The position numbers and the translations under genes are program-made. Below, piece by piece: positions 4,601-61,899 of a stretch of 64,000 nt of DNA (within the stretch, counting starts at the first letter, position 1; every line of letters starts with the position of its first letter). A model generated the notes under the pieces. That model worked only from the letters and a program-made list of their open reading frames with translations, made no database searches and was not told the origin of the DNA. Source of the stretch: Marsupella aquatica (Eukaryota; Plantae; Marchantiophyta); contig OZ316892.1 in the NCBI GenBank assembly GCA_973895155.1, forward strand, positions 510,917-574,916. Reading direction: 5' to 3'.

Positions 4601-4852
4601 CATACCGGTGATCTTGTGCTACTTTATGACAGTAGGTATAGTAGGTTTCCAGGAAAGCTTTACACTCGCTGGTTAGGACCCTTTAGAGTAACCATGATGT
4701 TCCCCAATGGCTCCGTGCAATTGGCCAACATTACGGGAGAGGTATATCCAGTTCGCATCCATTATGACCGCCTCAAGAAATACTATATGGACGAAGATGA
4801 AGTTGTTCGCGAGGACGCTTCACAATTAAGTGGGGAGCTATGTGATGCCTAG
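1586..4852 (+). CDS. pol: pol: reverse transcriptase, RNase H, integrase (intact ORF, probably entered by frameshift at ~1610)
   Basis: RT motifs CQDYRKLN, MPFGLCNAP, FIDD; RNase H FVDVS...NYSTTEREAL; integrase HHCC zinc finger, D,D(35)E core (WGIDY, SDRG, ERAN) and GPF motif. The stop codon lies just inside the LTR. Confidence 0.96.
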   Translation: MGSSSRDSGFSAGVVAEPTGSTTPSIIGKELNTKGSAYKPITRAKQIEALLEAERAQRPNSQEQEVDEMDRHDLEPRQEGEPTTNSKPNRPVRGQSMDTKEGTDSASPAEIPVYGGMRLERLEAELDPNLKKQINMIQARQYRKLDLGEGRELNLGRNLAPELEKEINDLLIEFQDVFAWSHQDLKGVDPTLGEHRIDLMLGAKSFRQPIRRMNPKYSLLVKTEIDKLVEAGFITPVLHSDWVSPIVIVPKKAGPDGKPKIRVCQDYRKLNEATLKDHFPLPFTDMVLDMVASHELYSFMDGYSGYNQIRIRQEDQIKTAFITEWGIYVFNHMPFGLCNAPTMFQRLMVNIFHDYLRKFMEIFIDDFAVFGKASKHAKYLRKTFMRCREVGLKLHPDKCFFAVTEGVLLGHKVSRKGIEIDKGKLAVWLDIMQPKNIKDVRSFLGCIGYYRRFIKDFAKLALPLTNMLKAGADFEPTPERVTAVVELKQMLVEAPVMIAPDWNKDFHVFVDVSGFCIGSVLSQLDEKGRDHPIYFASRQLADAERNYSTTEREALGVIYSCKKFRHYLLGYKVIFHTDHESLKYLVNKPDLTGRVARWILLLQEFDYELRIKPGKLHANADFFSRITGKPATDCIDDRFPDEELFVVEIAGTWYPEILQFLSTSRLQPGLSREQAAVFVRKVRQYQCIKGILHKHGINGTIQRCLEKREVKRVLRAMHGEEAGGHFAPVTTSKKILNAGYWWPTLHKDVYQFIKQCDPCQRAGGPRASTRHPLHPILPLAPFEKWGIDYIGPLKPLTHPRRNKYIILATDYATKWVEARPTTKDDAITTARFMYEQIFTRYGAPLELVSDRGTHFLNDIISRLNEQYLVKHRPTTPYHPKANGLTERANGIIGKILNKTVAQNKLDWDDKLFAAVFAYNLAYKSTTGHTPFFLTFGQEALVPMQLEIPTFQVTIEERASAEESLKEREYRLEALEEARMISAERVEYRQNIMKQQYDKRLKVVSIHTGDLVLLYDSRYSRFPGKLYTRWLGPFRVTMMFPNGSVQLANITGEVYPVRIHYDRLKKYYMDEDEVVREDASQLSGELCDA
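1610..1669 (+). promoter_or_regulatory. Putative -1 programmed ribosomal frameshift signal (slippery heptamer plus H-type pseudoknot)
   Basis: G GAT TTT at 1610-1616 is in correct phase for gag-pro to pol (-1), followed by a 5-nt spacer. Stem 1 is GGCGTTGTGG (1622-1631) / CCACAACGCC (1647-1656); loop GCCGA (1636-1640) pairs with TCGGC (1665-1669). Confidence 0.75.
4828..4837 (+). other. Polypurine tract of family A element
   Basis: AAGTGGGGAG sits 3 nt before the LTR-initiating TG; the same arrangement occurs in copy 3 (~61903-61912, minus). Confidence 0.75.
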
Positions 4853-4955
4853 ACAGGAATCACTCGACCGGTTAAGTGGGTAAAGCAGGAAGGCACCCTA
4901 GGAACACCTTAGTATAGTGACAAAACAAGGAAAATATAAACAATTAGGGGCAACC

Positions 4956-7900
4956 ATGGAACCCGGGCAGAGGCCGGAGGTAAGGCTGAGGGTGAAAACC
5001 CGATTAGGGTTAGGGCGCGTTAAGCGTCGGCGGCTAGGAAGGATCAACGGGAAGAAGGACCGGCAGAGGAGAGGGGTAAGGAGCGCTTGCAGGAGATGGT
5101 GGCTCATTTGCGAGCACGAACTAGGCAGACGACTACGGGAGGCCAACTACTGTCAGCTGCTTAGGCAAGCACTCGGGGAGAGAGTAGATACCGACGATCG
5201 ACCTAAGGAGGGTATGAGCAACGTCAATCAAGCGGCACATTTCTGGGGATGCCTGTTCGAACAGGCAACTGAGTACATCAAGACTTACGAGGACGAGGAG
5301 TCAGAAAGGGCAGCTCGAGAACGGCAGGAGCTCGCTCGATTGTGGGAGCTGCACAAGACGGCTTTCTTAGGAGGCGAACTCATCAAGGACGAGTTCCTGT
5401 GGACGCCTACTTCCAATCAACTCGACGATCTTCTGTTTTGCAAAGACAGCGTCGTCGGCATCCGAGAGGCCATCAAGAACTGCAACGACATACACTGGGA
5501 ATTAAAGGGTAGCACGGAAAGGTGGACCCGGGCAACGGTGCTAGGAGAAACCTCCACGGCAGCAGAGATGAAGAGGAAGGGAGCCGTCAACGATGAAGCC
5601 ACCCCGGCAAAAAGAACGAGGTCGGCGGCACCAAAGAAGCCAGCCGAGCAGCAGAGCAGGAGGCAGGGAGAAGCCGAAGAGGAGGAGGTCGATCCCATCA
5701 AGGCCATTCCAACCAGGGATGACACCTGGAAGGGCTGGGCGGCAACCCTACCGGTGGAGGTGCAACTACATTTTGCACGGGAGGAGGATGCATGCTTTAC
5801 GGCCATGCAGACCAAGAAGTACCAAGGCTTCATGGCCGGATCCGGCTTGGAGGCCTTTGTAAGATTACCATGGCTGAAGCCGGAGGTACCGGAGTCAGAC
5901 CTATTAGAATTCGTGGGGTCATGGGAACCCGAGACCAATTGCACGAGGATATATGGGAAGGATTTCTATCTTACTCCCAAGGTAATTGCCGAAGTGTTTG
6001 GCTTGCCGATGGGCAATAAGACCAAAGTTGATACCAGGAAGACCTTGCCTGACAAGGAGTTCCGGTCGTTCCCCGGGCCATCAACGAAGAATGGCTTCTT
6101 CCGGAGCACCTGCACCAACCCGCACATAGGAGAGATGATCGACTTCTTGCGGGTGACCATGCATTGTAACTTGCCGAGGGCAGAGATCGGCAAGGCACAG
6201 GTCTATCTGGCAGAAAGGCCAGACCCAAGCCGGGACTACAACGGGTACCTCCTCAACCAATTGAAGAAGATCTTAAAGGAGGAGCAGCAGGTAATCGGCA
6301 TGGGGAGCGTGTCGCGGCTTGGCTATCACATGCCGCTGTTGTGCCGGTATGCCAGAGGTCAGACTTTTGCCCCGGTACTTCCCCTGCAGGTAAGGGCACC
6401 CGAGGAAGCTCCAACACTGAGGCCGTTGGCTGAGAAGCCTCCACCACCTGTTAGTCCTACGATCGAGCAGGTGTTTAGGCCCAGGAAGGAAGACTTGCCG
6501 ATGCAGCAACCAGGCATGTAGAGTCTGCTGAAACTACTGGAGAAAGAAAAGAAATCGGCATCGGCAACAACAACAACAACGGCAACGGCAACAATGCAGG
6601 ACACTACTACAGAGGTAGGCCTACACCGGCTCACAAGAGAAAACCCCTTTGCTGGAGACAAGGAGAGAATCAGGCCGGAATCCAAGCCAGGTGTTCGAAT
6701 GTACGTGGGAACCTCAAGCTCCGAATCTGAGGCAGAATTGCCTGAAGCTCCTACCGACGAAGAGGAGAGGGAGAAGCCGGACGTCCAAGAAGTAGAGGAG
6801 GCAGTGGAGGATTGCAGCCATGATAATTCCGGCTATGGGTCGGACCATCACATTCCAGGAGTAAGGACCTGTGGCCGGTTTGTCCCCACACTTCCAAGGG
6901 TAGTGCGAGGGGACCCCAACCAGCAGAGTAGCCCTGAGTCTCCCCCACCAGATGTTGCTCCCCCGAGCTTCGACGGCATAAAACAGACGGTGCAGGAATT
7001 TCAGGAGCGAATCAAGCAGGAGGAAGAGGCCGCCCTGGCTAAGGAAAAGGATTTACCAGGAGGAGATTGGCCGGAGGACATCAGGCGGCTAGCCGAAAAA
7101 GGAAGCAAACCTCTAGCCACGATTGAAGAGATCCGCAGGACGGCGTGGGAGCAGAGGCCACGATGGGCGATGCCGATCACTTCTACTTACTCCACCTACG
7201 CTAAGAATAGAGCCATGGAGTATGGTGAGATGTGTGGGGAACTTGCGCTCGACATCTTTGGAGAGGAGTTGGAGGTAGGACCCTTTTTCCATAGGGAGCA
7301 GTTGGAGAAGCACCAATTAGAAGAAGCAGTGGCTTTAGAGAGAAGCAAGAAGGACGAGGTCATTCGGCGGCTTAGGAGGATGGGAGCCGAGATTGAAGAT
7401 CTAAGGGCGGCCAAGAAAGCCCAAGATGAACTGCGGATTAAACGACATGAGCTGAACATCATGCAGGGGCAGTTGGACGCCGCCCAGGCTGATAATCAGA
7501 ATATCAAGGATAAACTGGCTCAGACGCAGGAAGAGTTGGCCGACACGATCAAAGAGAGGGAGAAGTGGAAGCAAGAGCTGAAGAATACAGAGGAGGCCCA
7601 CATAACAGCCAACAGCCGGGCCATGGCGGAGACCCAAAGAAAGGAATGGGCGTTGAAAGGGGAGCTCGAGAAAATCCGCGGAGCCCTTGAGCAGAAGGAG
7701 GTCGAGTTAGGGAAATCCTATCAAGGGATTATGGCGCTGCAGCAGGAGCTTGCGTCCCTGACGGCCAGCTTCAAGGCCGACCTAAGGGAGAAGGACTAGA
7801 TGCTCGAACAGACTTACGCCAAGATGAACCAGATGGAGTCTGTCATCATTGCAGAGCTCGACAAGGAGCTAAGAGCAACCCAGGAGGAGAGGGCTACCTT

Positions 7901-8585
7901 GAAGAAGGAATTGGAGGAAGCCCACAGGGAGCAGGAGGAGGCCAAAAACGAGCTGGAGGGGGCACGTAAGGACCTGGATGAAACCCAAGAGGAGTTGGAG
8001 GAAATCACGAGGAAGATGGAGAACCTACAGCGGCGGGCCGACAACCAAACAGAGCGGCTGAAGAAACAAGCCGCAGTATTTAAATGCTTAGCTGCAGCAG
8101 GTCCATCTCCCGTTGGGACAAACCAGTTACCAGGGGTGGTAATTGCCGAAGGACAAGCCGCGTCAACTGCACCAGTGCCGGAAGTAAGTGGGAAGGGGAA
8201 GGGACCAGCTGCTGAGCCACCAACGAAGAAGAAGCGGAAACCTCCAGGGTCAAGGAGTAATACGACTTCACAGGCCGTGGTGATCAAGGAGGTAGACCCA
8301 GCACCGACCCCAGACAGGGTCACGGCTAAGGATCCAACTACCCTAGGGGAAGGGGAGGCCGAAGCCGAGGGAGTGGCTGAAGCCGAAGCCGTGGGAGTGG
8401 CTGAGGCCGAAGCCGTGGGTATTGCCGAGGCCGGTGTCGAGGCTGAAGCCGAAGGTGGACCCAGTCAGGCCGATGGAGAGTTGACTCGGTCAAGGGCAGG
8501 TAATCTGTCAATAGGTGGGCCAACGGCAGTGGCTGAGGAGGAAGTGTTGGGGGCGTCCATTGAGGATCCACCACCGGTGTCGTGA
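4956..8585 (+). pseudogene. LTR-encoded accessory ORF (~1209 codons; basic N-terminus, plant-transposon/PMD-like domain, long coiled coil, NLS), broken by 2 stops
   Basis: ORFs 4917-6521, 6594-7799 and 7800-8585 share one frame. TAG 6519-6521 is CAG in copy 2 (59866-59868). Motif GLEAFVRLPW...LLEFVGSW...IYGKDFYLTPKVIAEVFGLP; heptad-rich region ~7300-8070; PPTKKKRKP. Confidence 0.85.
8353..8455 (+). repeat. Coding minisatellite (18-24 bp units) encoding AEAE(A/G)VG(V/I) repeats
   Basis: Repeated gaggccgaagccg/gtggctgaagccgaagccgtgg units. Confidence 0.7.
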
Positions 8586-11025
8586 CGGTGCAAGGGCGCC
8601 GTTCCTTTTAGGGAAGGCGGACGTGGAGGGAGGAGGCGTGAGTGGGCAGGGCGGGCGCGGATATCCACGTTTAGGATTAGGATCAGAACCAGGAGCGGCC
8701 CTGACACTTAGCTTAGTGGGATTGCGGTCCCACTGGTAGGAGCAACACTTGTGCTCCTGCCTTGCTGTACATAGGTAGATTCGGGCAAGTAGATTACTGT
8801 TAAGTAGATTAGGCTTACGATGCAAAGAATGGCGGATCCACTACCAGGATAAGTACCTGGGCAGCGGGGAGCTCAGGGCCTCTTCTTTAGCAAGTTTTTA
8901 GTTTGCACCAGCCGGGCTGGGATCAAGTAGTACGAGAAGCTCTCGGTTAGTCATACAGTGACCCTTGTGTATATTCATGTTTCCTCATGCCTAAGAGCTG
9001 AATAGAGTTGGCCTCACGGCTTAGTTCGCAGAACTTGTGTATGAGATGTACTGTTTGTATGGCAAGTGCATGGTATGACTCAGTCAGAATGAGTCATTTT
9101 GCTATTTGTGTGTCGCATTAACTTGTGTGAAGAGTGCCCACATCAACAGAAGGAAGGAAAGTAAGCAGGGGAGTGAGAGTTGGATGTGTCGAGCTGAGAG
9201 AGGTCTTAGCGGCTTAACCAAGCCTATTGGGGATCATTCCGGCGGCGGAATCCAAACATACTTAACAGGAAGACAGGGGAAGACAGGGGAAGGCCTATAT
9301 TAGGCCGGCTACGTATCTCATGACCCGATGAAGGATCTGTCCAGTATATGTGTGTAAAATGTTAATAGTAGTAGTAGAAGGTTAGCAGCGTCCCATGTCG
9401 CTAAGCCGCGGAAACGGCCTCGCCAAGCACGAAACCTGCGGGAATCGGCTTGAGCTGGGGGGTTTCTTGGGTTTAGGGAGCCATGGGACGCACTACAGTC
9501 CTCACTGTCTGCACAATCAACCAAGCTATCCGGTAAGTAACCCATAAGAATCTAGACCTCCCAAGTCTAGCATCCTAACTCAAGCTCGACAGACATTGGT
9601 AAGTAGGTCAGTGATAGGTCCTCCCAATGCCATAAGTCAAAACTAGAACCAACACCCACTATTCGTCTAGAACAGTTCCTTCCTTGGGTGCAACCCGGGT
9701 TCCTCCTTGTGTACCTATCCATGACCAACTAACCGCCCTGCCCCCAGAACATGCTCATGGCCCAATTAGCGTAGCTTGTCCTAAAGCTTCTCCCAACATG
9801 CCAAGATCAGAATGGCTCCAACTCTCGGTTCCCGCTCCACTGATGGTCTAGGAGCCAAGTGCCCTTGGAACTCAACCTCCATGCCTACTTGGCCTTGCCT
9901 CCCCAACGCAAGCTCCCTTGGGAGACTGAACACGGTTTGGCTGCTATCTCGATAGGATTTGGCAAGCGAGTGAGATATCCCCCGTAAACCCCAAGAACCC
10001 ATGACAACCCTAGACCCAACTGAGCTTAGGAGGATGTAGTCCTCCTTGAGAGCTTTCCAACGCAACGCAACCCGTTGGAAAGTTATCATCATTTATGTTT
10101 GGCGTTTTTCCTTAATGTCGCAACCGTCGCGGCCCACGACTTTGGCTCACCCTTAGCCCCCAGGGAAACACCACTCCCCTCATATATGATTTTGGAGACT
10201 TGCCATCCCCGGACCTATTTTGGCCCCCAAATTTGGGCGGGCCCCCACTAGACCCTAACCTGCATGTCTGGGCGCACCACCAACTGGCAATGTCCATAAC
10301 TTTCTAGTTAGGCATCTGTAAGTGGAGTGCCTTAGCCCATTGTGATTGAGCCGACCCAATGCTCATGCCTAGGCCCTCAGATCCTGTCATTGTCTGGGAC
10401 TCCCTATGGGCCAAACTTGCGGGTCATAACTTGCGACAGTTGCCCATGGAGTAAAATCCATTTGCCTTAGGCCCAAGATGAGCTCTCCTTCAAGCACTCA
10501 AAATTCAAAGTTTGTTCGGGGGTTCGGATGGTCGACCTTGAGCCCGGCCCGTTCCCCTTGACCCGACTAGCCCTCAACTAGTTTAAGTCCTAGTGTGTGT
10601 CACCAACTTAGCGTCTTGCCTTCACCAGTGCCACTCCCCATTGTTCACCAGTCTCCCCATGCTAAGTCCTCCGCGGATGGCCATTTCGGGCCTAGACCAT
10701 AGGGGAGCTCGGCGTCGGAGTCAGTGACGCCGGAGCTAAGTAAGGTAGTTGATTTTTGTGACTTTACTACTATGCAATGATAGATTGTAGATGTATGCAA
10801 CTTGGTTGACAGGTTCAGCCCAAAAACTATTATGCAACTTGGACTTACATAGCATGTTGCGTGCTTTCTCTAGTAATGTCTGATTCAACCATTCTGCAAC
10901 TCCATTATGCTACGGGGCCTCCAATACATGTAATGACGCTTGGGGCCAAAGTCCTGACCAAATTGGTCAAGCTCATTGGACTTATACTCGCCACCGTTAT
11001 TTGATCACACACTTCAACCACTCAC

Positions 11026-11855: not shown

Positions 11856-14800
11856 CCAGAGCTAAACCCTAAACCCTTCCTACCTCACCCTACCTCCCCT
11901 TCCTGCTCTAGTGGTGGATCCGCTACCCCGGCTTCATCAATGATCGTCCCGGCCTCGGCCTTGCCCTCCCCGCCTTCTAGGACAGTTGGATCCTCTGTCG
12001 TGACCCTGCCTGAGGGTGGTGCCGTGTTCTCCTCCTTGGTCACGGTGGTGGCTTGAGAAGCCATGTTGCTCCCTGACCCAGAGGGTTTCCGCTTCTTCTT
12101 CTTCCCTTGGTCGGCAGCTGGTCCCTTCCCCTTGCCACTTAATTACCTCCGGCACTTGTGCGAGTGCCGCAGCTTGTCCCTCGGCCAGTACTATCCCTGG
12201 CAACTTTGTTGCCACAATTGGAGTCTGAACGGATGAAGCCAAGCACTTGAATACTGCGGCTTGTTTCCTTGGCCGATCCGTTTGGTTGTCGGCCCGCTGC
12301 TGTAAGTTCTCCATCTTCCTCGTGCTTTCCTCCAACTCCTCTTGTGTTTTGTCCAGGTCCTTGCACGCCTCCTCCAACTCCTTCTGGGCTTCCTCCAATT
12401 CTTTCCTTAAGGTAGCCCTCTCCTCCTGGGTTGCTCTCAGCTCCTTGTCAAGCTCCGTTACGACCTCAGACTCCATCTGGTTCATCTTGGCATAAGTCTG
12501 ATCGAGCTGGTCGTCCTTCTCACGCATGTCAACCTTGAAGCTGGCCGTTAGGGATGCAAGCTCCTACTGCAACACAATAATCCCTTGATAGGATTTCCCT
12601 AACTCGGCCTCCTTTTGTTCAAGGGCTCCGCGGAGATCCTCGAGCTCCCCCTTCAACGCCCTCTCCTTCCTCTGGGTCTCCGCCATGGCCCGATTGTTGG
12701 TTGCTATGTGGGCCTCCTCTACGTCCCTCAGTTTTCCTTGACCAAGTTGGCCAACTCCCCTTGGGTCCAAGTCAGTTTATCCTTGATAATCTGATTATCA
12801 GACTGAGCTGTATCCAGTTGCCCCTGCATGATGTTTAGCTCATGCCGCTTAATCCGCAGCTCATCTTGGTCTTTCTTGGCTGCCTTTAGGTCTTCTGCCT
12901 TGGCTTCCTTCTCCCTAAGCCATTGGATGACCTCGTCTTTCTTTCTCCTCTCCAAAGCCACCGCTTCTTCCAATCGGCATTTCTCCAACATCTCCCTCTG
13001 GAAAAAGGGTCCCTGCTCCAACTCCTCCCCAAAGATGTTGAGCGCAAGTTCTCCACACATCTCCCCGTACTCCATGGCTATGTCTTGTGCATAGGTGGAG
13101 TGAGTAGTAGTCATCGGCATCAACCACCACGGCCTTTGTTCCCAAGCCGCCTTTCGGATTTCTTCTATCGTGGCTGGAGGGCTGCTTCGTCTTTCTGCAA
13201 GCCACCGGATGTCCTCTGGCCATTCTCCCCTAGATAAATCCTTCTCCTTGGCCAGGGCTGCCTCCTCTTCTTCCCTGAGGCACTCTTGAAACTCTTGTGC
13301 CGTCTGTGTTATCCCGTCAAATCTCGGGGGAGCGACATCTGGTGGGGGAGACCTGGGGCTGCTCAGCTGGGTGGGGTCCCCTTATACTACTCTTGGAAGC
13401 GTGGGGATGAAATGGCCACAGGTCCTTACTCTTGGGACATGATGATCCAACCCATAGCCTGAGTCATCATTGCCATAGTCCTCCATTACCTCCTCCCCGG
13501 CTTGGACTACCGGCTCCCCCCGCTGCTCTCTTGGTCTTGCTGTGAATACGGCCTCTTGCCGAACATAGCTCATGAGTCCTGGTTCCTCCTCCGGCTTCCA
13601 AGCTGTCCTCTCCTTTTGTTTACCGTGACCAGGAGCTTTGGGCTGCTCTCCCTTGGATTCTGGACTTGTGGCTCCCACATACATTCAAACCCCCGGCTCG
13701 TGTTCCGGCCTCCTTCTTTCCTTGGCTCCGATAAAGGGGTTTTCCCTTGTGAGTCGGCTTAGGCCTACTTCTTGAGCAGCGTCCTATATCGGTGCCATTG
13801 CCGTTGCTGTCTTCTTTTCCTTCTCCAGCAGTTTCAGAAGATTTTGCATGCCTGGTTGATGCATCGGCAAGTCCTCCATCCTCGTCCTAAACACTTGCTC
13901 GATCGTAGGACTGCCGGGTTGGTTGGGTTCCTCTGCTGCCGGCCTCTGGTCCGAAACCTCTTCTAGTGCCCTTGACTGCAGGGGAAGTACTAGGGCAAAG
14001 ATCTGACTTTGGGCATACCGGCACAATAGCGGCATGTGATAGCCAAGCCGGGACACGCTTCCTTTGCCGATCACCTGTTGTTCCTCCTTCAAGATCTTCT
14101 TTAGTTGGGTGAAGAGGTACCCGTTGTAGTCCCGGCTTGGGTCTAGCCTCTCCACTAGGTAGACCTGTGCCTTGCCAATCTTTGGCCTCGGGAAGTTGCA
14201 ATGCATGGTTACCCGTAGGAAATCGATTATCTCCCCAATGTGCGAGTTGGTGTAGGTGTTCCCGAAGAAGCCATTTTTTGTTGATGGCCCTCGGAACGAT
14301 TGGAACTCCTTGTCTGACAAGGTCTTCCTGGTATCTACTTTGGTCTTATTGCCCATCGACAAGCCAAACACTTCGGCAATCACCTTGGGAGTGAGATAGA
14401 ACTCCTTCTCATACACCCTTGTGGAATTTGTCTTGAGCTCCCATGATCCCACGAATTCTAATAAGTCAGAATCTGGCACCTCTGGCTTCAGCCACGGTAA
14501 TTTCACGAAGGCTTCCAGGCCGGCCGGATCCGGCCATGAAGCCCTGGTACTTCCGAGTTTGCATAGCCGTAAAGCATGCATCCTCCTCTCATGCAAAGTG
14601 TAATTGCACTTCCTCAGGGATGGTCGCCGCCCAGCCCCTCCATGTGTCATCCCTTGTTGGAACAACATTGATGGGGTCAACCTCCTTTTCTTTGGCTTCT
14701 CCCTGCCTCCTGCTTCCTAACTTGGCTGGCTTCCTTGGTGCCGCCGACCTTGTTCTCTTCGCAGGGGTGGCCTCTTTGTTGTTGTCCACTTTCCTCTTCA

Positions 14801-15765
14801 TAGCGGCTGCCGTGGATGTTTCTCTGAGCACGGTTGCCTTCGTCCACCCCTCCATGCTACCCTTCAGCTCCCAGTTGTCATGCCGTCAGCCTAGGCCTTA
14901 ACCCGGGCTTCGGCTTAGACAGGCATATCCTTTGTTAATATGAGGGTTTGGGCAGGGAGGGAGGCACGGAATGGACCTAACTCACATAAACTAGCGCTAA
15001 GTGCACCTATTGTCATATACGGACACCTCTTAGGTATGGCTTGTGTTCCGCCGCCGGAACATACCTCAATCGATAGCAGGATCGACCCCGGCTTACAGGT
15101 TTCTAAGCCTTCGTGTTGTCCACCTTCGATCCAGATTCGATGGTATGGGTACTCAACCCGGGCTCGCAACCACTTACCCGCAAGCTACACCCCGTGCACA
15201 ACTTGGGTAGTGCGTTTGGCCAAGCGTTGGCACATATACATGAGATTCACACATATACATACGCACAAGCATACAATCTCAATTTACACGAAGGAAATAA
15301 TGGGAAAGGATTTTACTACATAGGAGACATATGCGTACACTTAGTTGACCCGAAAGCTCTGGAATGAATAGGTCCGAGGCCGAGGGTGTACACTACAACG
15401 GAGCCTGGCTCCGCACTCGCCCAGCAAGCTTAGTCCTACACCCTCCCCTTGGTACTCTTTCACTCCCATAGGTCGGGACTCCCCGCATACCGCGGATGTC
15501 CAACACTGAGACTAAAAATCCTCCTGCCTCTACCAAGGGGTGCACTAAATACTAAGGGCCGAGGAACGGAGTGCCCTTGCGCCCGAAGATTTGCTAACTA
15601 AGGTCCTAACTAAGCTGGCTGTCAGGCCGGAAAATGACTTGTCTTATTAGAAGATCCTAATCTACGCAGGTTATACAGCATGGCAGTGCTGCTTTAACTA
15701 GGGCAGGTGCTTGTCCCTATAGCCTAATTTAACTACTCCTACTCTATTTTAATCATACTCCGCCG

Positions 15766-18325
15766 CTAATGCTTGGCACGCTTGCCAGAGCCGCCTGAGT
15801 GGGAGCGGCTATCCCGCTGCCTTCTAAGCTTGTCGGCGTCCTGCTTGAGTAGTTGGACTTGGTCCAGCAGAGATTCATTCTCCCGCTTCGCAGTGTCTGC
15901 CTCTTCCACGGCCTCCTGGCATGCCTCCTCCAGTTGCTGGGTGTCGCTCGTCAGCTTATCCTCCAACTTGACCTGTTTTGTGACTTCTCCTTGAAGCCGC
16001 GCCACCTCTGCCTTCAGGGTGTCAATCTCGGCTGTGTCCCGCTGAGACCTCGAGTCAGCTTCCTCCAGATCCTTTTGCCAACTGACGGTTTGCCCCTACA
16101 AACCATCAATCTTGGTCCGGAGCCGTGCGATCTTGGCGTCCTTTCCAAGCCCGGCCTGTACTGCTAACGCTGCTTGGGCCCTAGCCTCGGCAACCTGGTC
16201 CTCCGTGGCCGTTACCTAAGGCCGTAGTTGCTGGAGTTCAGCCTCCAGGGTTGCCACTTTGTCCTTCAGGTAGACAGACTCAACCCGATATCGCTCTATT
16301 CTCTGTGCTGTCTCTGCCTGCGCATGTCCTGCCCTTACTGCCGCAACCAACTCTTGGTTGAAGAAGTAGGCCACCCTCCGGGCCATGTATTCCTCGGTGT
16401 CCCGAGAGATTTGTTGCGAGAAATCTCCCTACAACCCGTTCAGAAATGTGCCCGGCGCAAAGAGTTTCGGATGGTCTAGACTGTGTCCCTCTGGATTCGA
16501 GCATGGGCAGACTCCAACCCGTGCGGGAGTAGGAGTGGACACATCCAGCCCTTGAGGTAAGTCGGTCGAAGGGGCTGGTTCCATTGGAGGTGGACGGTTC
16601 TCCTGCACCACAGCGGGGGGTGGCGGAATCCCCTCGGCTACCATGGCATCTGCTTTGGATGCGGCTTCATCCGGCTTGGCTTCGATTGCATTGTCCCGAT
16701 TGATCACGTCTAAGGTCGCGATAACTTCAATGGGTATGTCTGGCGGGGTGGCAGCGGCTGGTTGTGGGGCCGGGGTAGCAGGACTTGCAGCCGCCAGACT
16801 TTGGGCCTTGGGCTGCGGTCGCCTCACCTGGGTTGGGAACACCCATTTTGGCGGGGTCAGCTCGGGCTGCGGTCGAAACGAGCATACCACTCGATGATGA
16901 TTTCAATGTGGCTAGCGAAGTACGCCCTTCCAGCAAGGTACAAAGTCTTCCTTCTCATCTCCATCTCCTCGTGGAACTTCTTGACGAAGAAGGACGCCCA
17001 CTTCTTGGGCCGATAGTTCTCCACCTGGATGACCTAAGCGGCCGATATTTCTCCTCTGGGTTCCATCATGTGGAGGACATACCGCTGGAACTCCAGGCGT
17101 TCTGCTACCTTTGGGATGAGGCACGTCCTCATTAAGAACCCATTGTCCACTACCCCCTCGACCGGGAAGCTAGATGACTGGTATCTAGCTCCCTTGCCCC
17201 CAAGAGCCCGCGATTCTACCCGGTTTATCCCCTCGGCCGGGTAAACCAAAAATCATCTTCAAACGTGCCTCATTGAGACACATCACTCTTCCGTGCGCTC
17301 GGGTTTGTTGACGGCCTCGTCAAAGTTCTGAATGAACTCCATCATATCTTGCCCATAGTACCTGCTTCCGTTCCAAGGGAGAGAGGCGAGGTGCTCAAAC
17401 CCTTGGGTCTTCAGATAGCATGCATGCTTGGGGTGGAGGATGTTCTTGTGAACGTTGTCCCCCATGCGATGCATGGTCAGCTTGGCTACCACAACCGTGG
17501 CCAAAGGCAACCCGGATACGGCTGCGGGCTCCTTCCTCTTCCTACCCCGAGATTGATTTCCGGGGTGACTGGAAGAGGGGGACATCTCTCCATCCTCTCG
17601 GTCAGGTGGTGGTAGCGCGACTGCCGTGAGTTTTGGTGCCAAGGCCACTAGAGTTACCATGTTATCACCTCGGGCTTGCTGGAGTGGTGCTGGGTTGTCT
17701 GGCGCTTGTTGAGTCATACCCCGCGGCTGTCGATTCAGAGGAGGGTGAGCCTCCTTGTCTTCAGAGCTAATATTTACCGCATTCACCACGGATCGTACTC
17801 GGAGAGGCAGTGGGACCGGTGGCGGGGACCGGCTCGGTTGAGGCCGAGGAGGTGTAGGCACGGGTATGGGCACGGGTTGGCCGACACTGGTCGTTGATGG
17901 TAGAGTTGCCATGAAGTTCTGCAGGTGCCGGTGGAGATTCTCCGAAGCAAGTGAAGACGGCCCTGTCAACCGGGCAGTGTTGAACTCGCTGTTGATGATA
18001 GCCCGGACCCGAGCGGGGATGTGGTCAAAGTAGTGCCGCTGCAAGTTGATCGTGCCCGGGATATTGATGACCTCGTCCAGAAGCCGATGTATTTGCCCCC
18101 GTCAAAGAAGTACCCTGATACTTCTTTGGGTCGGTAAAGCTCGCTCTGGGATGGGTAATCAAAGTTAAGGAGATAGTGGTGTCGTCCTGCTAGGCGGATG
18201 GCTCTCTCGTATTCGCGTTTGATCTCGTATCGGCGCGGGTTGGCATGTTTCAATGAGTCCGCCAAGTGCCCTCCGATAGACAGGAACTGAGTCCAGAATC
18301 GTATGGCCAAACTGGAAAGGATCAT
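15766..18325 (-). pseudogene. Degraded LTR-encoded ORF of family B (homologous architecture to the family A LTR ORF)
   Basis: Successive minus-strand fragments 17966-18325, 17283-18044, 17034-17249, 16429-16890, 16280-16504 and 15766-16005. GFEHLASLPW...DMMEFIQNFD aligns with GLEAFVRLPW...DLLEFVGSWE. C-terminal coiled coil; basic RGRKRK and GKRAKH motifs. Confidence 0.75.
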
Positions 18326-18432
18326 GTGCGATATTCAGAGGAGAGAGCAGGTGACTAAGGAAAAGCGAGAGAGTCAGGGTCGAAGCTGGCGAGTGGACTG
18401 AAGAACTGATGCACTGCAAAGGATCGGCCCCC

Positions 18433-18439
18433 TTTTATA
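18433..18439 (-). promoter_or_regulatory. TATA box upstream of the family B LTR ORF
   Basis: GGGTATAAAAGGG on the minus strand, followed by a CT-rich leader and an ATG at 18325. Confidence 0.6.
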
Positions 18440-20261
18440 CCCTGAGAGCTCGCCAACCGCCCGACGCCTCCTCGTCGCTTATAGGCCGAGCCTTTCACGC
18501 TCGCAGTGTACTGGCCCCTTTGCCGGTCCGGGTCAGCTTGTGCTTGGGGGTCTCACTACATGGGGACCTCCCCATCACCTGCGACGTTTTTAGGCCTTGG
18601 ACCCCCTAAAATGTAAGAAAAAAATATTATTTTTTAACCCCTATAAAGTTGGAATATTTTTGGATTATTCCAAAATTTGGATTAAAAAGGCCCTAATGTT
18701 CTTATAAGTCTCAAAATTGAATTTAAAAGACCCTAGTGTTCTTCTACAAAAATTCTTAAGTCTTCCCCTACAACCAATAAAATGACCATATCCTTCGTCG
18801 CACGTGATATGCCATTTTTGTGGAAGTGAAACCCCCCAGAGCTTGTGTGAGTGGCCGCCTCCCGGAGTTCGTTATACAGACCCGAGGGAGGGGGAAAGAG
18901 GGCCCATTACACCCTCGCAACCCGGGCGTGCAAATGGCGACCCGCCGCCAGCCCAAACATGAATTCCCCTTATTGACTAATGATTTCCTACTCATAATGG
19001 CTACCTAAATACTATCATTATGCTAATAATAATGGCCTAAGATACCCCTAACGCACGTGCTAAGCGTGGTTAGACCGAATCACTCATTACCCGCCGTACC
19101 GGCGGCGTCACACCAGTGTATGTCGTTGCAGCGGTTGATGGCTTCTTGGATGCCGACAATTTTGTTCTCACAAAACAGAAAGTCATCGAGCTCGTCGCCA
19201 GTAGGTGTCCACAAGAATTCAGCCTTGATGAGTTCTCCTCCTAAGAAGACAGACTTTTGCAGCTCCCATAGTCGAGCGAGCTCCTGCCATTCTTGAGCTG
19301 CTCTTTTCGATTCTTCATCCTCGTAGGTCCCAATGTACTCAATTGCCTATTCAAACAGGGATCCCCAAAAATGTGCTGCTTGATTGACGTTGCTCATACC
19401 CTCCTTGAGTTGATAGTCGGTATCTGCTCCCGCCCAGAGTGCTTGCCTAAGCAGCTGACAGTAGTTGGCTTCACTTTTGTACCCAATCAGTACTTTGTGT
19501 CACGAATATGAGACACAATCATGATAAAATTTGAAGTCATAAGTCATTGGTAAGTAATACTTCTTAGCATCTGTGCTCAAGCAAGGTCATGCCAACAATT
19601 ATGCATCAAGAACTAAGGAATATGTGAAATTTCACCAACAAGGAATCTATTTTCACATATACCAAAGATTTAACATTCACAATGATTTTTACTTCAAAGG
19701 TCCAAACTTCTCATTCATTTAGACTTGAAGGGGGAATAATTCATTTGTATTAAGTACTCATATGCAATGGAGTTCTCTTTACAAGGTGGAGGTAACAAAG
19801 TTGTAACTGAGCGCTCATGAAATTTCTTCACACTAAAAGTGACAGACTACATATAGGGTAGCAGGAACCAAAGGAAAAAAAGATAATGAAAGGACATGCC
19901 CTTTCATATCTTAAGGGTCATAAACTAAAGTAAAACGTATTAAAATAGGTTATAAGAGTGGTTCACTAGAATGCTCCTGGAATAAAAAAAACTAATCAAA
20001 AATGATCTCTAGTGTAAACTGGAGTAAAAGTGTCTTTGCGCTTTTGCGTTAAAACTAACAAATAGCAACTTTGTCTGAATTTTAATTTCTAACATAAAGG
20101 TCAGAATGGGGTGAAACTTTTCTAGGTGGAAGAATTACATATATGCTACAGTTGGCAAAATTTCAGACTTTTCTGAGGTGTCTAAGTGCTTAAATAAAAT
20201 CGGTGAAAAGTGCTGTTGGATATAAAATACACTTTTTCCGAAAAAATTTCTAAGTGTCGGA

Positions 20262-23492: not shown

Positions 23493-23834
23493 TGTTGAGC
23501 ATAGATGACATTCGCAACGACAAGCCCATGAACCATCCAACGCACAATAGTTGACACAGAGAGATACGTGATTCACCTCCACATGAGGCTACGTCCATGG
23601 GAACACACAAGAGCTTTACTACACTCTAGGCCGACCAGCCATACCAAGCATCCACAGCACAAGCTCTCCCTATCTCTCAACTAGCTTCATAACAATGAGC
23701 CTAAGTTCCACCAGGGTCTAGCATCAGCCCTGGCTATATGCACACTAGCACTACCGCTAACATTAGCTAAGTCCTAACCAGAGTTAGACTAACTGTGGTT
23801 AGCTCATGAGTCACAAGACGAGCAATATCTAACA
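23493..23834 (-). repeat. Copia 3' LTR
   Basis: Direct repeat of 29918-30261; PPT adjacent. Confidence 0.93.
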
Positions 23835-24030
23835 AACTCCCCCTTGACTCTTGTCTTGGGGACTAGAGTAAATGCTACCATATGGAATCCTCAGCGGGAA
23901 GTTCTAGACAATCACCAAATCGAGTCTCCCCCTAAAAACCACAAGGGTTAACTAGAACTAAGCCGTAGCCTAACAGGAATGAGTAATCCATATACAAATA
24001 GTCACACATTGCTAAATAACTCTACTTGCA

Positions 24031-27000
24031 CTACAACTGCAAAACCTGCAAAGTAGCACGGTGTCTTGAAAAACTCTCCAAATGAATCACTTTGGTAAAA
24101 GCATCAGCGGGATTGAGCTTTCCATCAATCTTGACTAGCTCAAAAGTTTTATTAGACACTACTTGCCTGATAAAATGGTACCTGATATTAATGTGCTTCA
24201 CCCTGCTATCCATCACCTGGTTAGCAGCCAAGTGAAGAGCACTCTGACTATCACAGTTTAGAGTCATTTTTCCATGCTCTAAACCCATCTCCGCGATCAA
24301 CTTATCCAGCCAAATTGCTCCCTTTGCTGCTTCTGCTATTGCAACATACTCTGCTTCTATAATAGACTGAGATATACACTTCTGCAAGGTAGATTTCTAA
24401 CTGATACATCCTCCAAGAGTGTATACAAACCCAGTTGTAGACCTCCTTGTATCCAGACAGCCTCCATAGTCAGAATCTACATAGCCAACTAACGTTCTAT
24501 CTGATCTGTTATCAAATAGTAATCCATAGTCCTGTGTTCCCCTCACATACCTGAGAATCCATTTCACAGCTTCCCAATATACCTTTCCTGGATTTGACAT
24601 GAATCTGCTGACCTTGCCCATCGCTAGGGCCAAGTCAGGCCTAGTACAAGTCATCAAATACATCAGACTGCCTACTGCCTTCTCATAAGGAATCTTAGCC
24701 ATCAGACCTTTCTCCACAACATCCGTAGGAGAGAAAGCCGATGATAACTTGAAATGTGAAGCTAAAGGAATATTCACTGGCTTACAGTTTTCCATGTTGA
24801 ATCGTGCAAGTACTTTTCTCGCATACTGGCCTTGACTCAAGCACAACTATCCAGTCTCAGAGTTCCTAAAAATCTCCATCCCTAAGATCCTCTTGGCCTT
24901 ACCAAGATCCTTCATCCTGAATTCAACACTCAATTTCGCCTTGAGACTGTCAACCTCAGATTGATCTTTAGCCACAATCAGCATGTCATCCACTTAGATC
25001 ACCAGAATGATGAAACCAAATACATCATTCTTGACTGATTTCGTATACACACAAGGATCATACACCATCCTTGTAAAACCTTGAGCAAGCATGAAATCAT
25101 CAAACTGCTTGTTCCACTGTTTGGGAGACTGCTTCAATCCATACAAGGACTTGAGCAATCTGCAAACTAAGTTCTCTTGGCCCTTCTTCATAAAGCCTAC
25201 TGGCTGTCTCATGAAGATCATCTCTTCCAAGTTGCCATAGAGAAAAGCAGTAACAACATCCATCTGATCCATCACAAGACCAAAAAACACAACAAGCTGA
25301 CACAAGATCCGAATTGTGGAATACTTAGCCACCGGTGAAAAGACCTCATTGTAATCCACTCCTTTCTCCTGAGTGAATCCCTTGGCAACAAGCCTTGCCT
25401 TGTAGATCTTGTCTCCACCCTCTGAAGGATTATCCTTCAACTTGTAAATCCACTTGCTGTCCACCACTTGTTGACCTCTTGGAAGCTCCACCAGCTCCCA
25501 TGTCTTGTTGTCACTCAAAGATTGCAACTCCCTCTGCATTGCTGCATTCCACTCATGCTTCTACTCTGAAGCACAAGCCTCACTATACGAAGAAGGCTCT
25601 CCTTCTTCCAAGATCAAAGCCATATCATCTTCATCAGGTGCAATGTTAATATCATCTAGCTTAGATGAGTCTGCCCATTGACCATACCTGGTAGGAGCTC
25701 TAGTAGAACGACTGGAAGTTCTTCTAGTAGATGACTCAGGCTGATCTGTTGCTGCTGCTGGTTGAATTTGAGGTACCCTAGCAACAATTTTCTCCTCTTG
25801 TTCCATCACAAGAACCAACTCCAAGCCCGGAGCTTCTCCATCTCTCCTGTCATGAACTGCATCATGACTAATCTCTCCCTCAACCCGGTCCGGGATGGGA
25901 GATTTCCCCTTGTCAGTATGGGAGTCCTGAGAACTCTCCCCCTCCTTTGATGATCTGGATTCATTAAAGGACACATCTCTACTGACAATTAGTTTACAGG
26001 TTACTGGATCCCATAACCTATAACCCTTCGCACCTTTCTGATAGCCAAGGAAAATGCACTTCTTCGACTTGGACTCCAGCTTGGATTGAAGCTGGGAAGG
26101 TGTAAGCACATAAGCATCACATCCAAAAATCCTCAGATGTGAGTAATTTGCTGGACGCCCGTATCTCATTTCAAATGGCGTCTTGAATCCAATAGAACTG
26201 GATGGAGAAAAAATTTATCAAATAAGCTGCAGTGTTGATAGCTTCATCCCAAAACTCATGTGGTAAGCATGATTGACTCAACATACTCCTCGAGTGGTCC
26301 AATAGTGTTCGGTTGAGTCTCTCAGAAATACCATTCTGCTGAGGAGTATAACTTGTTGTGAGATGGCGGGTAATCCCTTGCTCCTTACAATACGTTCCAA
26401 ATTCCCCGAAACTGTATTCACCGCCGTTATCTGATCGAAGATATCTCACCTTATTACCAGTTTGATTCTCAACTTGGGGCTTTCCACTCCTTAAAAGTGG
26501 CAAAAACATCAGACTTATTGTGTATAAAGTATATCCACACATATCTTGAGTAATCGTCTATGAACGTGACATAGTATAACCGTCTAGAATGTGAGGGAGT
26601 AGGGGCTGGACCCCACACATCACTATGTACATACTCAAGTACCTCCTTGCTGGTGTGAGTTCCAACTCCGAAGGGTTTCCTGTGCTGCTTCCCTAGCACA
26701 CAGTGCTCACAAAATTCCAACTTACAAGATTGCAAATTAGAAAGTTATCCTTTCTTCTGAAGAATAACCAAACCTTTTTCACTCATGTGGCCCAAACGAA
26801 AGTGCCACAGCCGGGCCGTCTCCTCATGAGATAAGGTTACATTGGCTTCATCACAGATTACACTGCCCTCCAAAACGTATAGATTGCAATGTCTTTTTCC
26901 TTTCAATACAACTTTAGTACCAGTTGAAACCTGAAGGACACCATTAGCAGAACTCCACTGATGGCCATTTGCTTCTAAAATTCCAAGTGAAATGAGATTT

Positions 27001-28313
27001 TTCATCATGTTGGGAATATGTCTCACATTCCTCAACGTTCTCACAGCACCATCAAACATCTGAAATCTTACAGATCCAAGTCCAACAACTTGACATGGGA
27101 TTCCATTTCCCATCAACATTGACCCGTTGGAAACTGTGTAAGAACTGAAACAATCTCTCCTAGAGCAAATGTGAAAAGTACATGCACTATCTAGAATCCA
27201 GTCATCACTACCTGGATTTGACACTACGTTGAGAGCATAACCTTGACATCACAATATATCATCATCATCGAGTAAATCTACCTCATGCGAGCTCGATGCC
27301 GCGTTAGCAGAGGCAGTAGGGACCTTTACTCGACAATCCCTTTTCATGTGGCCAGACTTGCCACAATTCCAACATGCAAGAGGCTTCCTCTCTTGCAATT
27401 TCCCTCTGGATTTAGATCTCCCCCGTGATGTAGATCTAAACCTGTTCTGCCCATTCGTGCGCTGCGCTGCTCTCCCATGGTTCACGTTCAGCGTAGTGCC
27501 AAAAGAAGATGCTGTCTGTGATTGACCCAGCTTCTTCTGAGCATCATCAGACAGTAAAGAGCTCACCACCTCATTACACAAAATGGACTTCAGATCTCTA
27601 TACAAGAGCACGTGTTTCAAGCCCTGATATGACGGCGATAAGGAGCTTAGCAAAAGCAAGGCCTTATCCTCATCTTCAACTCCTTTTCCCAGGTTTGACA
27701 AATCCACCGCTAGACTGTCAAACTCATCCCGGTGATCCTGCATCTTGCTCCCTTCCTTGAGCCTGAGGCTCATCAAGAGAGAATTCTTGTACAGCCGGTC
27801 AGATGCATCTTCTCGGTAGTACTTCTCTCTTAGAGCCTTGAACAATGACGCGCAATCCGCATAATCATCCAGCTGCTTGATGATGTACGGCTTCAGATAA
27901 AGCATCACTGCATTGACAACAATCACCTGCTCCTGTCTCCACTACCTCACTAAAATCTCCTTCTCTCCATCATACTGCTCTCGCGATGAAAGCAGATGAG
28001 CTAAGCCCATGGCCTGTAGAACACCCTTCACTTGCTTCTCCCACAACAAGCAATCAGTATGACCATCGTACTTCTCCACCTCAAACTTCACTCCTCCAAA
28101 TCTAGCCATTTCCCTCTTCTTTCCAACTACCAACAGCTCTGGTAGTAACACAACTTCCTCCACTGCACGCAGCACCGGTGATCGTACCGGTGTCACTAGT
28201 TCTTCCTCAAACGGTAGCAGCTCCTCCTCAGACTCACCGTCTGATCGTCGCAATCCTGAAGCTCCACCGACGTCAAATCTTCCAGTATCCTCCGAGTCAC
28301 TCATATGAAACAA
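24031..28313 (-). pseudogene. Copia gag-pol polyprotein (gag, CCHC, protease, integrase, RT, RNase H) with multiple stops/frameshifts
   Basis: Motifs CWNCGKSGHMKRDC, WILDSAC, LWHFRLGH, VHSDVWGP, LRSDNGGEY, YKARLVAKG, SLYGLKQSP; YVDD is mutated to *VDD; RNase H EAEY and KHINIRYHF. Confidence 0.93.
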
Positions 28314-29917
28314 TCACGAAAAAACATCTTTTTTCAAAACTTCTCATAAAACTCAAACCTCAACACCGCCGCGTAGCTCACGAAGCTAGGAGTCCAATAC
28401 TGAAAGCCGAAATCAAAATCAAAATTTGACGGAAAAGTTATTCAAATTTTGGTCAGGGTGGGTAAAACCTTGGGAAACTCCCCCGTTTTGACCACCTCGG
28501 AGAATAACCAAAATACCAAGTACAACCCGTCGTCGGAATCACGATGTGATTAGTGCGTCGCGTTGCTAACGCCAGTGGCAACGTCCTCACCGAAAAAGAA
28601 CCAAAAAAGTTACCGTTCGGCGGACGGAATCTTTGTGAGATGGCCAAAAAACAGCTCTATGTTTTTTGGGAATATTCCCACACAGTCTCACAGGTCTCAC
28701 AGGGGGCCATTCCCCCTGTCGAAGCGGTTAAAACGGAGGGTCACAGGGCCCGGGACAGCCAATAGAAGAGCCAACAAGAAAAAGACAAAAAAATTGGCAC
28801 TTAAAAGGGGTTGAATGGCCCCTTAGCAAAAATACGCCCCAAAATGCGCATCCGCGTCGCGCGACGCGGGGCGGGCCAGGCAAGATACAGGGTATGCGCG
28901 AGTGTGGCCGGGGTACGCACGGGCGAATATGGGCGTAAATGCAAAAAAGGGGCGGGGGAGGAGTTTGCGACCGATAGCATGGCCTGGTCGCAAAAAGTGT
29001 ACAAAGGGGGGGGCCGGGGGCTCGTTAAGTCAAGGGGAAGGGCGACAGCGCGCACAAAGCGCCGGCCGGCGCTGCGCAGTTCGCCAACGCGGGAGGAAAA
29101 AGAGGTGCGGGGGGGGACGACAAGTACTCGGGGCCGGGAGGGGTATGAGTTGTGTATACACACCTCGTGTGTGTATACACACACCAAGTGACCCCCTTAA
29201 ATCCAAAAATTAGCCTAAAGCAAAAAATGCTGATTACTCAACCTAACAGCCGCCGTTTTAAACAAGAAAACAACGAGTTACCGACGGGATATGTTGCCGA
29301 ATCACACCGGCGCCGTCTGCAACTCCAGCACTGTAATAACTTTCGTCGCGTCACCTTCACTGCGCGTCAAGTGTCAATCCCAGACTCAAAACAACCGCCT
29401 CACCGCGATCAATCCATTGAGCCGTAGCACTTCGCGTTTCTTCCACCGAGTCGGACGTCACGAAGAGAAAACCCGGTTCAGATGAGAACAAGCTCCATAG
29501 CTTATGAAAAAACCTGAACGCCTCCTTCACTCGTCACGATGCACTCGGTAATAACTCGACAACAATCCAGCTACCGAAAAGACCAGCTTGCATCAACCTT
29601 CAACTTAAGCTATAATGTGCGATCCCTCCCGTACCGCACAGCTCACACCGTTGAAAAACGTAAACTCTGGTCTCTCCCCTGAAATATCGTCAAACACGAA
29701 TAAACCCTGAACGACGCAAACTTTGATTCCTCCATACCACGGATACCGATCAGCGAGTTCTAACCACCGTTAGAATGCCCTCTCACTAACCTATCCGCAC
29801 AGCCACACACATTTGAGTTTCATGTGACGAAACTCCAAATGTACCATCGACAATGAACGCTGGAAAAACCCGTCACGAAAAAACCTCGTCACCTCCCAGG
29901 CATGCTCTGATACCACT

Positions 29918-30261
29918 TGTTGAGCATAGACGACATTCGCAACGGCAAGCCCATGAACCATCCAACGCACAATAGTCGACACAGAGAGATACGTGGTTCA
30001 CCTCCACATGAGGCTACGTCCACGGGAACACACAAGAGCTTTACTGCACTCTAGGCCGACCGGCCATACCAAGCATCCATAGCACAAGCTCTCCCTATCT
30101 CTCAACTAGCTTCGTAACAATGAGCCTAAGTTCCACCAGGGTCTAGCATCAGCCCTGGCTATATGCACACCAGCACTACCGCTAACATTAGCTAAGTCGT
30201 AACCAGAGTTAGACTAACTGTGGTTAGCTCATGAGTCACAAGACTAGAGCAATATCTAACA
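29918..30261 (-). repeat. Copia 5' LTR
   Basis: Adjacent to the PBS; repeat of 23493-23834. Confidence 0.93.
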
Positions 30262-60795: not shown

Positions 60796-61899
60796 TGTGG
60801 TGCGTCCCATGGCTCCCTAAACCCAAGAAACCCCCCAGCTCAAGCCGATTCCCGTAGGTTTCGTGCTTGGCGAGTCCGTTTCCGCGGCTTAGCGGCATGG
60901 GACGCTGCTAACCTTCTACTACTACTATTAACATTTTACACACATATACTGGACAGATCCTTCATCGGGTCATGAGATACGTAGCCGGCCTAATATAGGC
61001 CTTCCCTTGTCTTCCCCTGTCTTCCCCTCCGTCTTGTTAGGTATGTTTGGATTCCGCCGCCGGAATGATCCCCAATAGGCTTGGTTAAGCCGCTAAGACC
61101 TCTCTCAGCTCGACACATCCAACTCTCACTCCCCTGCTTACTTTCCTTCCTTCTGTTGATGTGGGCACTCTTCACACAAGTTAATGCGACACACAAATAG
61201 CAAAATGACTCATTCTGACTGAGTCATACCATGCACTTGCCATACAAACAGTACATCTCATACACAAGTTCTGCGAACTAAGCCGTGAGGCCAACTCTAT
61301 TCAGCTCTTAGGCATGAGGAAACATGAATATACACAAGGGTCACTGTATGACTAACCGAGAGCTTCTCGTACTACTTGATCCCAGCCCGGCTGGTGCAAA
61401 CTAAAAACTTGCTAAAGAAGAGGCCCTGAGCTCCCCGCTGCCCAGGTACTTATCCTGGTAGTGGATCCGCCATTCTTTGCATCGTAAGCCTAATCTACCT
61501 GACAGTAATCTACTTGCCCGAATCTACCTATGTACAGCAAGGCAGGAGCACAAGTGTTGCTCCTACCAGTGGAACCGCAATCCCACTAAGCTAAGTGTCA
61601 GGGCCGCTCCTGGTTCTGATCCTAATCCTAAACGTGGAGATCCGCGCCCGCCCTGCCCACTCACGCCTCCTCCCTCCACGTCCGCCTTCCCGTTGATCCT
61701 TCCTAGCCGCCGACGCTTAACGCGCCCTAACCCTAATCGGGTTTTCACCCTCAGCCTTACCTCCGGCCTCGGCCCGGGTTCCATGGTTGCCCCTAATTGT
61801 TTATATTTTCCTGGTTTTGTCCCTATACTAAGGTGTTCCTAGGGTGCCTTCCTGCTTTACCCACCTAACCGGCCGAGTGATTCCTGTCTAGGCATCACA
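60796..61899 (-). repeat. Short 3' LTR (1104 bp) lacking the 3562-bp ORF cassette
   Basis: Matches 4841-5054 joined to 8617-9497 through a single GGGAAG (61686-61691). Confidence 0.9.

Follow-up and report, generated by a model that had tools for sequence, protein, structure and literature searches.

What kind of element occupies positions 14876-19112 of a 64,000-nt stretch of the liverwort Marsupella aquatica (contig OZ316892.1, positions 510,917 to 574,916, hereafter the window), and what is the gene that lies inside it? The original prediction, made from the letters of this stretch, had taken the unit for a solo long terminal repeat (LTR) of a second retrotransposon family (here family B), carrying a degraded gene homologous to one in the LTR of the other family in the window (family A). 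The interpretation preferred here, to which we assign a probability of about 58%, is that the unit is the solo LTR of an Athila-related bryophyte Ty3/Gypsy element and carries a broken gene for a protein with a predicted VANC-like fold that would likely act as an anti-silencing regulator.

The 4.2-kb unit as a probable solo LTR

Read on the minus strand, the 4237-bp unit (14876..19112) runs from TG to CA (TGTGACGCCG...CGGCATGACA), and its inverted termini match at 8 of 10 positions. It is bordered by perfect copies of CCAGT at 14871-14875 and 19113-19117 (plus strand), as had been claimed. The host of the insertion is an older, decayed family-A LTR (A', minus strand), whose 3' half (11953..14875) is ~80% identical to copy A1 and whose 5' half (19113..19472) was recognised by comparison with family A. 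Because residues 1-94 of the family-A protein map to 19394-19113 and residues 93-216 to 14876-14505, i.e., to either side of the unit, the two halves of A' rejoin exactly across the CCAGT duplication. The empty site (joint of 14870 to 19113, with 5 shared letters) was found in contigs of three of four public DNA runs (X2, X3, and X4), and at position 14876 contigs of all four runs continued into many unrelated flanks. Contigs covered the whole stretch (30/30 bins); they numbered in the thousands and were divergent, mostly 90-99% alike. Duplication, empty site, and unrelated flanks together therefore identify the family-B unit as a real, repeated, integrase-type insertion with fixed ends, of which no second copy was found within the 64-kb window. 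The expected lack of gag and pol was borne out by the absence of any gag/pol Pfam match in the three open reading frame (ORF) pieces of the unit that were scanned, and the expected low DNA similarity between the families by a best DNA match of only 30-34 nt.

For family A, the LTR could be established within the window itself: pol (reverse transcriptase (RT), RNase H, and integrase) is followed, directly after integrase, by a pre-LTR motif and polypurine tract (4811..4840, plus strand), and then by TG at 4841. The 3' LTR beginning there (4841..9497, plus strand, 4657 bp) contains an accessory ORF at 5217-8585; its TG start recurs at 58188 (copy A2) after an unrelated flank, and its CA end at 9497 recurs in copy A3. 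For family B, contigs of run X1 have a loose end at the 5' terminus of the unit (19112; 16 contigs, agreement 0.45) that is identical at 24 of 30 positions to the 30 nt before the family-A LTR, the runner-up place in the window scoring 18. Because a sequence resembling the family-A polypurine tract thus adjoins its 5' end, the unit probably represents the LTR of a gag-pol element that is sister to family A.

The LTRs of the two families also have motifs in common. At the 5' end of the unit (19060..19112, minus strand), GCCGGT-N5-GGGTAA and GAATCACTC, the latter in opposite orientation, were found by motif comparison, and within the 64 kb both occur in A and B LTRs only; the score of the inverted GAATCACTC motif at the 5' ends of A and B was reached by 2 of 500 shuffles. 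The likeness of the 5' ends that had been pointed out before stood in part: GCCGGT-N5-GGGTAA is present in A2, A3, and B, but A1 lacks it, the spacing to TG differs by 17 nt, and the first 80 nt showed no significant similarity in a plain local alignment (224/500 shuffles). Near the LTR 3' end, the conserved motif TTCCGGCGGCGGAA (15046..15059, minus strand; 9237 in family A) folds as a stem-loop in both families and is absent elsewhere in the 64 kb; its alignment score was reached by 0 of 200 shuffles. The polypurine-tract loose end, the common LTR motifs, and the protein homology described below support the view that the unit is a solo LTR from a second family whose gene is homologous to that of family A, and we regard the solo LTR itself as very probable.

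The accessory gene and its predicted protein

The accessory ORF of family B (15766..18325, minus strand) extends from an ATG at 18325 to a TAG at 15768-15766. As previously described, it is a degraded ORF of ~2.6 kb; its ~850 codons are spread over three frames with 7 internal stops. The three pieces align in order with an uninterrupted natural protein of 906 aa (P0176; E 0.006, 5e-55, and 0.001), and because of this collinearity they can be treated as one gene. Three of the seven stops cluster where the family profile also matches the neighbouring frame, in a stretch at both edges of which other copies differ in length, so these three stops seem to be private to this copy. The family-B gene copy in the window is a pseudogene. 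The predicted TATA box and CT-rich leader were found again: the sole TATAAAA on the minus strand of the unit (18433..18439) is followed by a pyrimidine-rich leader and is likely the internal promoter of the accessory gene. The encoded protein comprises a conserved core domain of ~200 aa with a predicted VANC-like fold (16872..17501, minus strand), located by homology to the family-A domain, and a coiled-coil-like C-terminal region (15780..16330, minus strand) with sub-threshold matches to many coiled-coil Pfam families. No transmembrane segment was found in either protein, the highest 19-residue hydropathy being 1.45 in the B pieces and 0.98 in A.

Alignment of the A and B proteins, proposed earlier as a check, gave significant similarity in the core domain (BLASTP E 5e-10, 20% over 210 aa; z 20.7, reached by 0/1000 shuffles). 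The shared features that had been listed for the two proteins are thus real in the core, but the N-termini are not significantly similar (172 and 911 of 1000 shuffles reach the score), the coiled coils align weakly (8/1000 shuffles), and basic clusters are present in both proteins without aligning. The family-A accessory gene is under purifying selection, with a ratio of nonsynonymous to synonymous substitution rates (dN/dS) of 0.21 (0.16-0.27) over 584 codons of A1 and A', and each of the four segments gave a value below 0.5.

All copies of the gene in the window are damaged. This favours an explanation in which the gene matters in full elements only and is a decaying passenger in solo LTRs, so that the gene cassette would have no biological role there: the B copy has several frameshifts besides its 7 internal stops, 2 stops interrupt the A1 copy, A' is decayed, and in A3 the whole ORF is missing although both LTR ends persist. 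The strong selection across gene copies speaks against such an explanation, though it is silent on which copies supplied the protein. We consider the passenger explanation a serious contender, only somewhat short of even odds, and it is compatible with the first half of the preferred interpretation. The earlier description of such LTRs as self-contained cassettes fits the anatomy of the unit as read from its sequence, while the window copy itself is a pseudogene.

Among 1.84 billion proteins, 54 relatives of the accessory domain were found using a three-row profile, and 8 of the 20 that were looked up are named from the liverwort Calypogeia fissa. Two of 32 relatives (the ORF of metagenome locus L015 and P0164) match Transposase_32 (PF20167), with scores of 21 and 17 bits, below the Pfam cut-off of 45 bits, and the Atlas leads were PF20167 and PF03078 (ATHILA), at 0.89-0.90. 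A PDB sequence search gave weak coiled-coil-type matches only; a word-indexed homologue search returned nothing for B (proteins of 710-2025 aa only) or A (238-760 aa only), viral-contig scans yielded nothing, and a first metagenome scan with the accessory domain gave no match.

A structure prediction with 3 rows was unusable (pLDDT 34); the model of the family-A domain with 44 rows reached pLDDT 92 and pTM 0.88. The Foldseek top match of this 44-row model was DNA-bound VANC21 (TM 0.49, E 1.2), followed by matches with TM of at most 0.19. VANC21 was also the top match in VIA (Z 8.5, root-mean-square deviation 4.0, 200 of 214 residues aligned), where the runner-up among 48,161 chains had Z 2.1. 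The match to VANC21 is moderate in size, but in this model it stands alone and covers the domain. A viral fold library gave one partial match (BFVD A0A890CAY5, 805 aa; E 0.009, probability 0.91, TM 0.35).

VANC21 (DUF1985; PDB 9LNJ and 9LNK), encoded by a VANDAL Mutator-like element, is described as recognising a nine-base motif in the tandem repeats of the transposon that encodes it and as removing methylation in trans (PMC5735166), and VANC proteins are described as dicot-specific, structurally related to MAIN, and derived from it (PMC13547354, 10.1101/2024.09.27.615353). The accessory protein resembles VANC21 in its predicted fold, in being a transposon-encoded accessory protein, in its coiled coil, and in its fast sequence divergence. 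It differs in being encoded in the LTR of a Ty3/Gypsy element of a bryophyte-type lineage rather than in a VANDAL DNA transposon, in sharing 7-12% identity, and in the lack of a tandem motif array in B. PF10536, the plant mobile domain of Ogre extra ORFs and of MAIN/MAIL1, and TRP28 (PF04195) of Retand antisense ORFs (PMC11963269) provide a further comparison, and the PMD-C type is reported to be structurally like DUF1985 (10.1101/2024.09.27.615353). Those ORFs likewise encode retrotransposon accessory proteins with predicted DNA binding, but they are internal and mostly antisense, and the accessory protein has no Pfam match to either family.

A shared fold does not show function, and the same solo LTR and gene could encode a protein that plays no part in anti-silencing but does another job, for example directing integration towards chromatin or serving as a general nuclear cofactor. 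The related PMD-C proteins MAIN/MAIL1 are linked to silencing and oppose Polycomb (10.1101/2024.09.27.615353), and a dense motif array is absent from B, both of which would suit such a job. On the other side, the sole solved structural match is a DNA-bound anti-silencing factor; the observed/expected CpG ratio of 0.76 in B and 0.68 in A1, compared with 0.51 in the older A', points the same way but is explained by age alone. We rate another job as rather unlikely.

Position of the gene in related elements

The RT of family A shares 69-70% identity with Calypogeia elements, 54-60% with Riccia elements, and 37-51% with angiosperm matches. The RT phylogeny that had been suggested was carried out for family A (89 of 120 listed matches, re-rooted, without labelled Athila references); it groups family A with Calypogeia, apart from the angiosperm group.

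Metagenome contigs were scanned for related integrases, and the pre-LTR motif was found in 11 of the best 80 of 134 loci. In three (L007, L014, and L015) it comes after the accessory ORF, i.e., the gene lies between pol and the polypurine tract, and in L007 the tract is followed by an ordinary LTR of ~1 kb and a primer site. In the other eight, the tract directly follows integrase, which is the arrangement of family A. The accessory domain was detected downstream of the tract in L004, L005, L006, L008, and L010, and weakly in L009; it was undetected in L001 and L002, whose contigs end. In L005 and L009, which show the complete gag-pol-LTR arrangement, the TG that follows the tract forms an inverted repeat with the LTR end preceding the primer site, which places the start of their ORFs inside the LTR. 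A profile ties the ORFs of these in-LTR relatives modestly to family A (E 4e-5 for A, 0.05 for B).

The arrangement of family A recurs with integrases that share only 53-62% identity with its own, which supports the earlier claim that LTR-borne genes are an old trait. To call the trait lineage-wide was too broad, since it is found in a sub-clade only and the gene remains outside the LTR in the close relatives L007, L014, and L015. An integrase tree of 35 sequences, from which L039 was dropped as too short, nests the in-LTR group among gene-outside groups within an enclosing clade of bootstrap 100, for which reason the position outside the LTR is likely ancestral. Since relatives carry the gene either before the polypurine tract or inside the LTR, comparison of their sequences points to one or two likely moves into the LTR. 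No support was found for a simple exchange of polypurine tracts that would have left a relic at 8596-8625 after the family-A ORF (its score was equalled in 3 of 40 local shuffles), and neither A nor B was found to retain a relic of the main pre-LTR motif.

Some further features of these loci were recorded. In L003, L007, L011, and L039, the integrase stop is immediately followed by a second polypurine-like tract, upstream of the accessory ORF; L007 has it in addition to the tract before the LTR, and its contig resembles a whole-element circle that has collapsed, the gene lying outside the LTR. The pol ORFs of L026, L030-L034, and L049 extend 200-450 codons past integrase in an unrecognised extension.

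Protein genes that lie in U3 and are copied into both ends of an element are familiar from animal retroviruses, where they are represented by sag of mouse mammary tumour virus and nef of human immunodeficiency virus. These proteins are unrelated to the present one, and their ORFs are far below 850-1120 codons. Among plant elements, Athila offers a close comparison. Sense extra ORFs of Athila (eORF-3'F, 'env-like') include Athila ORF-1 (PF03078) and Transposase_32 (PF20167) (PMC6317226, PMC7264820, PMC11728184), and a published lineage table gives Athila no aRH and a 5-bp duplication (PMC6317226). Agreement with Athila extends to the sense orientation after pol, the non-chromovirus RT of family A, the lack of aRH (family-A pol has one RNase H, then integrase), the 5-bp duplication in B, the distant domain similarity through relatives, and the shared arrangement of L007, L014, and L015. 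Unlike in Athila, the polypurine tract precedes the gene in A, B, and the L004-L010 group, where the gene is part of the LTR; the protein has no transmembrane segment and no direct Pfam match, and the family-A RT falls outside the angiosperm group. The Phygy and Selgy lineages are listed with a 4-bp duplication and no extra ORFs (PMC6317226), unlike the 5-bp duplication and long extra ORF found here. Reviews place extra ORFs in the internal region (PMC7264820, PMC6317226, PMC11963269, PMC3485330), and a full-text literature search with little coverage of subscription journals listed no paper on a plant retrotransposon gene inside an LTR or on a VANC-like retrotransposon protein.

Proposed mechanism and its implications

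According to the preferred interpretation, the gene would have started out between pol and the polypurine tract, as an ordinary extra ORF in sense orientation, and later have moved downstream of the tract, into U3. There it would be read from its own TATA box at 18439, while the genome-length RNA would start ~120 nt from the LTR 3' end. Reverse transcription would copy the gene into both LTRs at each transposition, and LTR-LTR recombination would remove gag-pol and leave the gene in every solo LTR, so that intact solo-LTR copies could supply the protein in trans as a possible self-activating gene. The predicted protein would be a sequence-specific DNA-binding regulator that keeps its own family active against host silencing; the family-B copy in the window would have decayed since insertion. 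Such a role for Athila ORFs is presented as an open question in a 2026 paper (PMC12844716).

A position for the genomic-RNA promoter is suggested by TATA boxes of L009 (TATAAAA) and L007, which lie ~150 and ~100 nt from the LTR 3' end. In family B, TATATG at 15014..15019 (minus strand), picked after the fact, is a weak candidate; its distance from the 3' end is 144 nt, compared with 153 nt for that of family A, and two further copies lie further upstream. The TATA box at 18439 could instead be the main promoter, in which case the gene would lie in a very long R and head the genomic RNA, with gag-pol expressed via a spliced RNA or a second start. No other canonical TATAAAA is present on the B sense strand, and a GU-rich stretch near 15240-15300 resembles a plant 3' end by eye. 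The TATA positions of L009 and L007 disagree with this, no splice donor is evident in the B leader, and the 3.5-kb minus-strand strong-stop DNA that it would entail would be unusual. We therefore think it unlikely that the box at 18439 is the main promoter. Least probable is a self-standing non-autonomous element with LTR-like ends, moved by the family-A integrase, since, although the window holds one copy and neither paired copies nor a primer site was seen among the matches listed, a family-A-like polypurine tract adjoins the 5' end in other copies, arrangement and end motifs are those of the proven family-A LTR, and L005 and L009 show the whole gag-pol-LTR arrangement.

Several observations weigh against the preferred interpretation. 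Among the matches listed, the polypurine-tract loose end was seen in one of four runs only, and beyond the 3' end of the unit there was no primer-site consensus, only mixed flanks; no paired B LTRs around gag-pol were seen in the contigs, which are too short to span such pairs. The in-LTR clade has a bootstrap of only 80 in the integrase tree, and the accessory-domain tree joins the in-LTR L004 group with L003/L007 rather than with A or B, so that two moves into the LTR, or a gene swap, are possible. The U3 placement in B depends on the relatives and the weak TATATG. As to the protein, the domain of A and B has no Pfam match and could not be aligned to two angiosperm proteins bearing PF20167; the Foldseek E-value of the VANC21 match is not significant, sequence identity to VANC21 is as low as stated above, and Z 8.5 is near the range that VIA calls common for helical domains. 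Because the fold was modelled on family A and not on B, the VANC-like fold is attributed to family B by homology alone. Finally, no 6- or 8-mer excess was found in the non-coding DNA of A or B, whereas VANC targets are dense tandem motifs.

The 9-mer AACCCGGGC (14900..14908, plus strand; also at 15155 and 18919), chosen after the fact, is a weak candidate binding motif, found at three places in B and at one in each A copy; two 9-mers occur three times in B, which was matched by 19 of 300 shuffles. Short-motif excess is strong in the relatives L006, L008, and L009.

Separately, TCCGGA is very dense in L009, L006, L005, and L008, with 16.5 per kb in the L009 LTR (L009:1-1395); it also occurs at 3-9 per kb in the coding DNA of these four loci and is missing from family-A pol. 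This density could reflect a VANC-type target array or a methylation-context effect. The AGCGCT repeats of L007:6574-8250 are concentrated in the LTR and leader, at 4.2 per kb compared with ~1 in coding DNA.

In copy A3, pol is followed by a 1.1-kb LTR (60796-61899, minus strand) without positions 5060-8611 of the long LTR, i.e., without the whole accessory gene. The deletion junction is a short microhomology; an origin of the short LTR as a spliced product was rejected, as this junction has no GT donor. A3 sits inserted in copy A2, and gene-less LTRs may thus still transpose. The window further contains a PPR-E-E+-DYW editing-factor gene with 303-nt internal repeats (47497-50406, plus strand), an ORF with a PTP-NADK domain resembling plant NAD kinase 2 (32170-34170, plus strand), a decayed Ty1/Copia element with two 345-bp LTRs 96% alike (23493-30264, minus strand) and a third LTR copy at 42156-42499, and a pair of 316-nt inverted arms, 90% complementary and 551 nt apart, that is possibly a fold-back element (41755-42937). 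No tRNA gene was found in the 64-kb window.

What extra ORFs do in plant LTR retrotransposons is described as an open question (PMC7264820, PMC6317226, PMC11963269). For one branch of them, the predicted VANC-like fold would offer a specific function that can be tested, and it suggests that this fold is not confined to eudicot DNA transposons. With the gene inside the LTR, a solo LTR becomes a possible gene copy rather than an inert scar, and annotation pipelines and LTR-length filters would miss such copies; the close relatives with the gene inside or outside the LTR make the transition directly comparable. More tentatively, and with the odds against it, a clade of bryophyte Ty3/Gypsy elements may have moved a VANC-fold anti-silencing gene into its LTR, such that each LTR or solo LTR would be a gene with its own promoter and binding sites. 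If this is true, sequence-specific anti-silencing would long predate the eudicot VANDAL DNA transposons and extend well beyond them, with Athila-type extra ORFs as its retrotransposon branch, and solo-LTR formation, the main deletion route of the host, would leave trans-acting activators of the family behind.

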